The notes: generated by a model from the letters alone, not told the origin. A stretch of DNA of 64,000 nucleotides from GCF_988242995.1 NZ_OZ547043.1; one strand, 5' to 3'. Shown: positions 1 through 54,670, counted from the stretch's first letter. A program made the numbers and translations.

Positions 1-867
1 TCCTTTGCTGCCTGCGATATCAATCCCCTTGTTGCCCCCCTCAGAAGCGCCAAAGGTTTCGATCACTTTGCCCTCAGTCGGCCAGCGCCAGGTGGAGATA
101 GGCGTACTGGTTGATGTACTGCTGACAGTCGGCTCGGTTGTGCTTGCTGTTGGTACCGTTACAGGCGCTGTGACCGTGGTCGCAGTTGGCTTGTTGTTCG
201 GCAACATTTTGTTAGCACTCTGTTCACCCGAAGACTCAGAATACGTAATTGTCGGTTGCGAAGCAACAGCAACGGTGGAATTTTGTGCAGGCTTGATCAC
301 AACTCCTTGCTCTGCTGCATCGGCCTGGGTAATGGCATTTCCGCCAGTGATTGGCGTACCGGAAGCATTACCCACCTGTAAGGTCTGACCGACGTTCAGC
401 GCGTATGGTGCCTGAATATTGTTGCGCTGAGCAAGGTCACGGAAATCGTTGCCAGTAATCCAGGCGATATAGAAAAGTGTGTCGCCTTTTTTCACGGTAT
501 AGGTACTGCCGCTATAACTGCCTTTCGGAATGTTCCCATACTGACGGTTGTAGACGATGCGTCCGTTTTCCATCTGTACCGGCTGCTGAGCTACTGGCTG
601 CACCGGCTGGATTTGCGGTTGTTGAGTTGCCTGAATTTGTGGCTGCTGTACCGGCTGAATTTGCGGTTGCTGAGCTGTAGACGTCGTCCCCATTTTCGGC
701 GGCGGCGTAATCAACATACCAGAATTGGTATTTGCAGGCGCATTGCCATTAACGGAGCTGACCGGGGCCGGTGGATTTGAAGTGTCAGAACAGCCTGCCA
801 GCCATAGCGAAACCAGTGACAAAGCCGCAATGCGGCGAACGGTGAATTTTGGGCTTCCCGCGCTCAT
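1..867 (-). CDS. nlpD: Murein hydrolase activator lipoprotein NlpD, 5' part only (3' end lies beyond window start)
   Basis: Reverse-strand ATG at 867-865 reads [26 protein letters not shown] (signal peptide plus lipobox) and stays open to position 1, passing through Q/P-rich tandem repeats near 590-690. Absent from the ORF track because it runs off the window edge. Confidence 0.85.
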
Positions 868-1005
868 TTATCCCCCAGGAAAAATTGGTTAATAACCAGT
901 GACATAATTACCGTGCAAGGCACCATACTGAACACTGGAAAAGATGTTCCGATACGCTGACCTGCGGCAAAATAACCAGGAAAAATCCAGGTATTTCCTC
1001 ACGTT

Positions 1006-2367
<1,362 letters not shown>

Positions 2368-9751: not shown

Positions 9752-11000
9752 GGGAGTTCTACCGCAGGGGCGGGGAATTCTAAGTGATATCCATCATCGC
9801 ATCCAGTGCGTCCGGTTTATCCCCGCTGACGCGGGGAACACGCTTTTCCCCACGCGTCCAGATCTTCGACTGGCGGTTTATCCCCGCTGGCGCGGGGAAC
9901 ACTCATTAAATTGTTTTTCCCGATCCCAGCTCTGCGGTTTATCCCCGCTGGCGCGGGGAACACCTGGAGCGCAGAAAGTTTGATATCGAAAATGCCGGTT
10001 TATCCCCGCTGGCGCGGGGAACACAGTTAACAACCCGCGCCGAACAAGCCCGACAACGGTTTATCCCCGCTGGCGCGGGGAACACCAGGTTCGTAAAGGT
10101 GAACACGGCACGACGGCCGGTTTATCCCCGCTGGCGCGGGGAACACGCGTCGCCATTCTATTAGCTTTTCCTCATCACCGGTTTATCCCCGCTGGCGCGG
10201 GGAACACCCGACAATCTCCGCCTCCAGTCGGTCGACCTGCGGTTTATCCCCGCTGGCGCGGGGAACACTGTGCCCGACTGCGTGCCGCGTCGAGCGCCTG
10301 CGGTTTATCCCCGCTGGCGCGGGGAACACTTCGCCGCCATCATCCTGTGGTGCCAGTTGACCGGTTTATCCCCGCTGGCGCGGGGAACACATACCGCAGC
10401 AAATTACGGTTCCAGAAACGCGCGGTTTATCCCCGCTGGCGCGGGGAACACTGACACGTTAAACGGTGCGTTGTCGTCGCTGTCGGTTTATCCCCGCTGG
10501 CGCGGGGAACACCCTGCCGCCCCCTTTAGCCCATATGGGGGCGGCGGTTTATCCCCGCTGGCGCGGGGAACACTTCAACATTACGAAACGGGATCACGCC
10601 GCTGACGGTTTATCCCCGCTGGCGCGGGGAACACCGGCTCCGCGTCGACATAAAAGTCCTCGGGATCGGTTTATCCCCGCTGGCGCGGGGAACACATATT
10701 TCGCCCCGTCACGCTGAATCAGCCAGCCGGTTTATCCCCGCTGGCGCGGGGAACACTCGCTTTTAAAGCGCCGGAGGAAAGTAAGCTCCGGTTTATCCCC
10801 GCTGGCGCGGGGAACACTAGCATAAATTACCCGATCAGATCGCGGACATCGGTTTATCCCCGCTGGCGCGGGGAACACTCGATCAAAAATTTACAACCAA
10901 AGGCTTCAACCGGTTTATCCCCGCTGGCGCGGGGAACACTCCCCGGTATCAGAAATAATTCCCTGCTCGATCGGTTTATCCCCGCTGGCGCGGGGAACAC
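9752..11000 (-). CRISPR. CRISPR array, type I-E repeats, 21 repeats and 20 spacers
   Basis: 29 bp repeat CGGTTTATCCCCGCTGGCGCGGGGAACAC with exact 61 bp period, starts at 9813, 9874, ... 10972; all spacers 32 bp. Repeat at 9813 has one mismatch (CTGACGCG). A degenerate terminal repeat sits at 9752-9780 (about 19/29 matches). Leader is on the right, so crRNA is read on the minus strand. Confidence 0.98.
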
Positions 11001-54216: not shown

Positions 54217-54670
54217 TGTTGCACTCCTGAAAATTCGCGTTAGCCACGCTCACTCTGGACTGCGACATCGCCAGGAAATCAGAGGTGACGTAGGGTGTTT
54301 TTTGCCGTTTTTATAGGTCGTTCGCCGAATACGGCGCGTGTTTATATCTGGCAATAGCAGTATAAAAAGCGCGCCATAGCGGCTCACCGTGCAACAACAC
54401 AACATTAATGCGTTCAATGAGGCCCAATTTTGGCATTAGCCCTGGACGGTGGAATCCACTTCACGGAAATGAAAACAAGAACAAGAAAGGAAGGGTTAAA
54501 ACGAAGAAATAAAGAAGAGTATGAAATGGATCGCTTGACTCCAGGCAAACGCCAGTAAAAATCCGCGCTATGAAGCAGTTTTTACTGGCATTTGCCTGAA
54601 AAGATTCGATTCAGCACCGCTAAAACGGCATTTACACCGCTAAAACGGCATTTACCGCTCGCTGAACGTA

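Follow-up and report, generated by a model that had tools for sequence, protein, structure and literature searches.

The first 867 nucleotides of the DNA analyzed here (the window, a 64,000-nucleotide stretch of NZ_OZ547043.1, assembly GCF_988242995.1) are almost certainly the 5' three-quarters of Escherichia coli nlpD, in which the DNA for the second linker of the protein doubles as the major sigma-70 promoter (rpoSp) of rpoS, which encodes the stress sigma factor, and the first linker contains a Q/P-rich spacer. The K-12 version of this promoter, the major sigma-70 rpoS promoter inside nlpD, was reportedly described by Lange, Fischer and Hengge-Aronis in 1995. The nlpD-rpoS arrangement in the window is the textbook one and was already known; its sole departure is a common synonymous allele of the -35 hexamer.

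Translation of the minus strand from position 867 to position 1 gives a stop-free frame of 289 NlpD residues, which are 100% identical to E. coli K-12 NlpD across the shared 289 amino acids. Window 1-1100 aligns collinearly with K-12 MG1655 at 98.8% DNA identity, and the alignment places window position 1 at NC_000913.3 2,867,887. The sole indel relative to K-12 in this segment is 1 nt in the nlpD-pcm spacer, and all 11 differences within 1-867 are synonymous. Window 1-1100 had a megablast match in 5421 of 5426 complete E. coli genomes; every match is chromosomal, and the annotation under these matches is nlpD and pcm. The closest genome is that of an O169:H41 pig isolate (99.9% identity). Next after nlpD in the window come the same-strand genes pcm, surE/umpG, truD, ispF, ispD and ftsB.

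The gene and protein features of the fragment are as follows.

1-867, minus strand: nlpD coding sequence, codons 1-289 of 379; the ATG is at 867->865, and the left window edge cuts the gene.
790-867, minus strand: lipoprotein signal peptide, read from the translation (LWLAGC, Cys26), with lipobox L-A-G-C at codons 23-26 (window 801->790).
373-501, minus strand: LysM peptidoglycan-binding domain, aa 123-165 (Pfam PF01476, E = 1.6e-12).
34-372, minus strand: second disordered linker, aa 166-278, from LysM to dLytM/M23 by Pfam boundaries; it hosts the rpoS promoter.

The order of elements in NlpD, a cell-division protein and amidase activator, is lipid anchor (lipobox Cys26), linker 1, LysM, linker 2 and dLytM. 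In full-length K-12 NlpD, Peptidase_M23 (PF01551) occupies aa 279-372 (E = 4.6e-33); since the window stops at residue 289, it includes only 11 residues of dLytM/M23. The Pfam placement of LysM and M23 agrees with the published architecture of NlpD, an outer-membrane lipoprotein whose two linkers are both predicted to be disordered and whose gene contains the rpoS promoter (PMC5533458).

Several observations concern the nlpD gene itself. Some E. coli RefSeq/PGAP records annotate nlpD as 1095 nt, as compared with 1140 nt for the curated K-12 gene. The shorter call takes the TTG codon of Leu16, 45 nt into the gene (window 822 instead of 867, minus strand), as its start. This is probably a mis-call, because the lipoprotein signal peptide would lose its positively charged n-region. 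The translation-initiation patch of nlpD, GGGGGAtaaATGAGC(G/A)CGGGAAGCCC (window 850-883, minus strand), is near-invariant in Enterobacteriaceae, Erwiniaceae and Yersiniaceae, including the synonymous sites of codons 2-5. Its two GGA motifs lie in the Shine-Dalgarno sequence and at +10, and its RNA fold is not more stable than that of shuffled sequences (z = 0.34). This patch might be a post-transcriptional control site, e.g., of the CsrA type. A terminator-like hairpin followed by a T-run lies antisense to nlpD within the LysM-coding region (window 462-487, plus strand); terminator-like sites in 1-1100 number 3 against 1.0 +/- 0.9 expected, which is not clearly above chance. Plus-strand open reading frames antisense to nlpD (e.g., 5-388) were considered and set aside as mechanical by-products of the opposite-strand gene.

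A search of the whole window with Rfam at the gathering threshold gave no match within 1-867. Elsewhere in the window, two RNAs scored above this threshold: the sok antitoxin RNA (RF01794; 19990-20147, minus strand, 111.7 bits) and CsrB (RF00018; 56292-56651, minus strand, 382.9 bits). As the position of CsrB shows, the window and K-12 are essentially collinear across 56 kb. A CRISPR array at 10179-10941 has a 61-nt period and the repeat CGGTTTATCCCCGCTGGCGCGGGGAACAC, which we take to be the E. coli type I-E repeat. A perfect two-copy tandem of a 20-nt unit, CACCGCTAAAACGGCATTTA, is found at 54615-54655.

The promoter was located by transfer of mapped start sites. The start site of PrpoS has been placed 567 nt upstream of the rpoS ATG (PMC10948607). 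With the MG1655 rpoS ATG at 2,867,551, position -567 is 2,868,118, and coordinate transfer puts it at window 232 on the minus strand. A 454-sequenced rpoS start was reported at -565, two nucleotides away from the known site, under the label 'Known sigma 70 ... rpoSp' and with the -10 box attaCGTATTCTgagt (Mendoza-Vargas 2009, Table S1); this start corresponds to window 230. The 16-mer attaCGTATTCTgagt has a single exact match in the 64-kb window, at 249->234 on the minus strand, whereas 0.00 matches are expected by chance. The promoter, its predicted regulator sites and the part of the leader present in the window are listed below.

261-266 (266->261), minus strand: rpoSp -35 hexamer TTGCTT; K-12 has TTGCGT, through a synonymous SNP at window 262.
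17 nt, minus strand: rpoSp spacer between the -35 and -10 hexamers.
238-243 (243->238), minus strand: rpoSp -10 hexamer TATTCT, in nlpD codons Tyr209-Ser210.
230-232, minus strand: rpoS transcription start site by coordinate transfer from MG1655; 232 is -567 from the ATG and 230 is -565.
286-301 (301->286), minus strand: upstream CRP-like box TGTGATCAAGCCTGCA, predicted from sequence, 7/10 match, centre at about -61.5.
169-184 (184->169), minus strand: downstream CRP-like box TGCGACCACGGTCACA, likewise predicted, 9/10 match, centre at about +56.5.
1-232, minus strand: first ~232 nt of the 567-nt rpoS 5' leader, simultaneously nlpD coding sequence; window 1 is 2,867,887.

An earlier note on this DNA had stated that the window carries only the 5' 867 nt of nlpD and had suggested that the main rpoS promoter should lie inside this fragment, a point that depended on an estimate which the note could not verify. 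Both hold: translation and the K-12 alignment assign codons 1-289 of 379 to the window, and the start site is transferred to window 232-230 with the published -10 16-mer unique at 249->234. The same note had named an rpoS start site outside the window as the finding that would speak against it; rpoSp lies about 230 nt inside the left edge.

The promoter matches the sigma-70 consensus at 7 of the 12 positions of its -35 and -10 hexamers. A consensus scan of window 1-1100 returned 0 sites, a result that says nothing about rpoSp, because the known promoter itself scores just 7/12. Fifteen other minus-strand sites within the 867 nt score at least 7/12, and rpoSp is therefore not singled out by its sequence alone. 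A literature text search with the promoter sequence and genome coordinates found no relevant paper, the number matches being unrelated, and the rpoSp coordinates had no match in the portion of the Cappable-seq supplementary data available to us (PMC4782308).

The rpoS ATG is 336 nt past the left edge of the window, so that the window lacks rpoS as well as the remaining ~336 nt of leader, in which small-RNA pairing and the hairpin are located. For this reason, the operon context in the window's strain would be that seen in the closest genome (99.9% identical, with rpoS 62 nt after nlpD) and in K-12. Presumably, rpoSp would also be active in this strain.

The nucleotides of rpoSp are conserved across the order. 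Loci were gathered from one-genome-per-species assemblies of Enterobacterales and Orbaceae with a back-translated LysM motif as a DNA pattern. This gave 120 loci; nlpD was complete in 92, and rpoS lay 42-126 nt downstream in 77, which were compared in a codon alignment. The spacer of rpoSp is 17 nt in 77/77 species. The -10 hexamer is TATTCT in 64 species, TATCCT in 9 and TATGCT in 3 (together 76/77), and the -35 hexamer starts with TTG in every one of the 77 sequences scored (K-12 and 76 species, one species' sequence being left out as unalignable in that region). Sigma-70 recognition depends most on these fixed positions (TTG; TA...T). Leader lengths deduced across species range from 515 to 635 nt.

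The same alignment can be read at the codon level. Amino-acid conservation of linker 2 is low in the 77 species, and around rpoSp it is only 0.3-0.6, yet the hexamer nucleotides are fixed. The codons beneath the hexamers are 100% codon-fixed (V201 GTT, Y209 TAT and S210 TCT), whereas mean codon fixation over the 179 conserved degenerate columns is 0.65 (sd 0.19). Of 326 third positions, just 12 are invariant, and these 12 include all 4 that belong to the promoter (hypergeometric p ~1e-6). The rpoSp hexamers are under purifying selection at the nucleotide level. A second codon-fixed cluster across the 77 species, codons 361-379 of K-12 nlpD, is off the window, in DNA shared with the distal part of the rpoS leader. 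Constraint at the RNA level, from the structure of the leader and its small-RNA/Hfq sites, would fit this cluster, which serves as an internal positive control.

Could the invariance at codons 201 and 208-210 instead reflect constraint on the NlpD protein, codon usage or the nlpD mRNA, with the promoter assignment a coincidence of coordinates? Tyr209 and Val201 are indeed conserved as amino acids (100% and 97%, respectively), and codon fixation is also high elsewhere in nlpD (codons 2-5, 317-322 and 361-379). However, the nucleotides stay constant where the residues vary: codon 210 encodes S, P or A and is always xCT, and codon 208 encodes T, A, E or K and is xxG in every sequence. The flanking linker is poorly conserved as protein, the fixed positions coincide with the key positions of sigma-70 at a constant spacing, and the start site has been mapped 6-8 nt past the -10 in E. 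coli and to the corresponding position in Y. pestis. Constraint on the leader RNA cannot explain the hexamers either, because they lie upstream of the rpoS start site. We regard a coding explanation as extremely improbable. A different question is whether the element in the window is only a minor contributor, most rpoS transcription in this strain coming from nlpD-promoter read-through or from starts near the rpoS ATG. Published observations include a low-level bicistronic nlpD-rpoS transcript and extra starts close to the rpoS start codon (PMC10948607), a further promoter, rpoSp4, is listed at -173 (Mendoza-Vargas 2009, Table S1), and the -35 hexamer differs by one base from that of K-12. On the other hand, the intragenic promoter has been called the principal one and credited with stress induction (PMC10948607), deletion of the equivalent region reduces RpoS in Y. 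pestis (PMC2736372), and nlpD deletion is polar on rpoS in E. coli (PMC5533458). The -35 form of the window also occurs in other species, with as many consensus matches as the K-12 form (see below). A minor role is thus very unlikely, and we retain the assignment of the linker-2 element as the major rpoS promoter.

Within E. coli, a 71-nt promoter segment is at least 95% identical, with no indels, in all 5419 genomes with a match (blastn). Megablast with this 71-nt query missed ~1650 genomes, a word-size artefact; blastn recovered all 5419. The exact 71-nt allele of the window is present in 325 of 5426 complete E. coli genomes. Four allele classes, from the window, K-12 and three sampled genomes, were examined, and the only hexamer SNP among them is at -35 position 5 (window 262), which is T in the window and G in K-12; the remaining SNPs, at 273, 235, 216 and 186, fall outside the hexamers. 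The -35 SNP is synonymous (Ala202, GCT in the window versus GCG in K-12), and TTGCTT and TTGCGT have an equal number of consensus matches. TTGCTT is found in 15 other Enterobacterales species and is therefore a normal allele rather than a lesion.

The two CRP-like boxes differ in their conservation. Only Escherichia and Citrobacter retain the TGTGA half-site of the upstream box, while GTCACA and GCGAC of the downstream box are conserved in most Enterobacteriaceae. CRP sites at -62.5 and +55.5 are said to have been described by Hengge-Aronis in 2002; the box centres in the window are within 1 nt of these. The boxes may be occupied by CRP in the window's strain. Two CRP sites with possibly antagonistic roles have been reported for the rpoS promoter (PMC5711951), and the inputs listed for rpoSp are CRP, ArcA-P, ppGpp and TorR (PMC10948607). 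Next to the upstream box, a block CCTGCACAAAAT (window 291->280, minus strand, about -59 to -48 from the rpoS start) is conserved as DNA in most Enterobacteriaceae; the TGTGA half of the adjacent box is not conserved alike. This block may be an UP-like element or a regulator site.

In the mechanism established for this locus (PMC10948607; PMC5533458), which should apply here too, sigma-70 RNA polymerase would start at 230-232 within linker-2 DNA (nlpD codons 201-213), flanked by the CRP-like boxes at about -61.5 and +56.5. The transcript would carry a 565-567-nt leader composed of the 3' third of nlpD, left untranslated, and the 62-nt intergenic gap. Its distal, off-window part would contain an inhibitory hairpin and the pairing hub for DsrA, RprA and ArcZ, at which small RNAs and Hfq would control translation. 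Read-through from the nlpD promoters would provide basal rpoS expression.

Comparison with known systems places this promoter close to its K-12 counterpart, which lies in the same gene, likewise 565-567 nt upstream of the rpoS ATG, with an identical -10 and flanks, a 17-nt spacer and the same CRP-like boxes. The two differ by a single base in 71 nt, the one that makes the -35 TTGCTT in the window and TTGCGT in K-12. In Y. pestis, primer extension placed the rpoS start Txn4 inside nlpD; the promoter elements were put 547 bp upstream of the ATG, and deletion of the promoter region lowers RpoS (PMC2736372). For two Yersinia species in our alignment, the distance from the end of the -10 to the rpoS ATG is 548-549 nt, as compared with the published 547 bp. 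The Y. pestis promoter occupies the homologous LysM-dLytM linker site, with -10 TATTCT, a 17-nt spacer and a leader of ~545 nt. In contrast, the -35 in the aligned Yersinia species is TTGATT, the Q/P repeat is missing from a much shorter N-terminal linker, and the promoters of nlpD itself differ.

The rpoS promoter of Pseudomonas fluorescens SBW25 also lies inside nlpD and contains a mutational hotspot, C565T; the nesting of the rpoS promoter in nlpD has been described as conserved across Gammaproteobacteria (PMC11838912). The nesting within coding sequence is the same as in E. coli, but the Pseudomonas promoter requires the activator PsrA, and a C -> T change at its -12 position makes the promoter better while truncating NlpD. 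No equivalent hotspot mutation is available to E. coli and relatives, because their -10 hexamer already begins with T (at -11 to -13, according to the mapped start chosen as +1), which is part of a Tyr codon.

The second feature of the fragment is the Q/P-rich repeat in linker 1, whose parts are as follows.

574-675, minus strand: Q/P-rich tract of linker 1 (N-terminal, disordered), made up of three imperfect 24-nt units and a degenerate tail.
672->649, minus strand: repeat unit 1, QQPQIQPV, 8 codons in coding orientation.
648->625, minus strand: repeat unit 2, QQPQIQAT, 8 codons in coding orientation.
624->601, minus strand: repeat unit 3, QQPQIQPV, 8 codons in coding orientation.
Ending at 574, minus strand: degenerate repeat tail QPVAQQPVQ, after unit 3.
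574-585 and 646-657, unstranded: perfect 12-nt direct repeats CTGTACCGGCTG, 72 nt apart, a repeat family.
598-609: third direct-repeat copy, CTGCACCGGCTG, with one mismatch.

An 18-nt core pattern, CARCARCCRCAAATYCAG, has 3 matches at an exact spacing of 24 nt, against 0.01 expected in the entire 64-kb window, and a repeat search of the tract gave families spaced 24, 48 and 72 nt. DNA identity among the three units is 62-88%. Tandem Repeats Finder (TRF) reported no array for the tract, even at a minimum score of 30, because the repeat is too short and too divergent. The earlier note had described this segment as repeat-rich, with Q/P-rich DNA repeats at about 590-690. The repeat is real, and the note's coordinates come close to its actual extent, 574-675; 'repeat-rich' was an overstatement, given the unit identity and the negative TRF result. 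The 42-nt string that the note offered as a repeat unit is present exactly once, at 607-648, and is not a unit, since it covers ~1.75 units of 24 nt.

Tract length is nearly fixed within E. coli and differs between genera; from species to species, the tract evolves fast. At least 80% of a 181-nt tract query is covered in 5417 of 5420 E. coli genomes, and among 40 genomes sampled evenly across the match ranking, the matched segment spans exactly 181 nt in 39. The exception, E. coli Z142-6, has a natural in-frame 72-nt (24-codon) deletion, corresponding to window 586-657 and lying exactly between the perfect 12-nt direct repeats at 574-585 and 646-657 (CAGCCGGTACAG), that takes out two and a half Q/P units and the tail and leaves a single QQPQIQPVQ. 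The 386-aa NlpD of the sister species Escherichia albertii has four QQPQIQxx units, as compared with three in E. coli, and other Enterobacteriaceae have degenerate PQIQPVQ-type tracts in linker 1. Yersinia, Serratia, Edwardsiella and Pectobacterium have no Q/P tract, and their linker is 51-66 aa, versus 97 aa in E. coli. The tract is likewise missing in many Enterobacterales with otherwise conserved NlpD.

These data bear on whether the repeat is a passive element or a hypervariable, contingency-type tandem repeat that tunes NlpD length or function in populations. The difference in unit number between E. albertii and E. coli, the clean deletion between direct repeats in one E. coli genome and the presence of 4 of the 11 synonymous SNPs versus K-12 within this ~100-nt tract would fit the latter. 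Against it, length is constant in nearly all sampled genomes, the divergent units go unscored by TRF, and many Enterobacterales lack the tract although their NlpD is otherwise conserved. Phase switching is also impossible at this repeat, because the 24-nt unit is a multiple of three. Neither high unit identity nor frequent copy-number polymorphism was found in E. coli; we rejected a hypervariable contingency locus and consider this role of the repeat quite unlikely. The tract is most likely a flexible low-complexity spacer, and its role would be a passive one. Its DNA repeats may occasionally recombine or slip, so that the tract changes length in frame from species to species and, on rare occasions, within E. 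coli. In the linker study of Tsang, Yakhnina and Bernhardt (2017; PMC5533458), as here, the Q/P repeat falls in the N-terminal linker and the promoter in the second, both linkers being predicted to be unstructured; that study did not address repeat structure or species variation, and the present length comparison is descriptive only.

Overall, the finding leaves current understanding unchanged. With rpoSp and the first 232 nt of the leader, the window includes the point at which the general stress response is controlled transcriptionally. Because nlpD deletion is polar on rpoS, codons 201-213 should be treated as a promoter in the analysis or engineering of nlpD in this strain. The failure of the consensus scan to detect rpoSp, with its 7/12 matches, illustrates that such scans cannot exclude promoters and calls for caution in genome scans. 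A promoter nested in a gene leaves a footprint at synonymous sites, seen here as hexamers and a spacer that are frozen order-wide inside a drifting linker. The invariance extends to non-consensus bases, namely G at about -13 and C as the fifth base of TATTCT. These bases, together with the exact 17-nt spacer and the conserved CCTGCACAAAAT block, suggest a conceivable, if rather doubtful, reading in which rpoSp is held at a sub-optimal, regulator-dependent setting, the codon-tolerant disordered linker permitting a rigid DNA code within a coding frame. If this were true, possible purposes of such a setting would be responsiveness to ppGpp/DksA, or exclusion of the sigma-S holoenzyme so that autoactivation is avoided.
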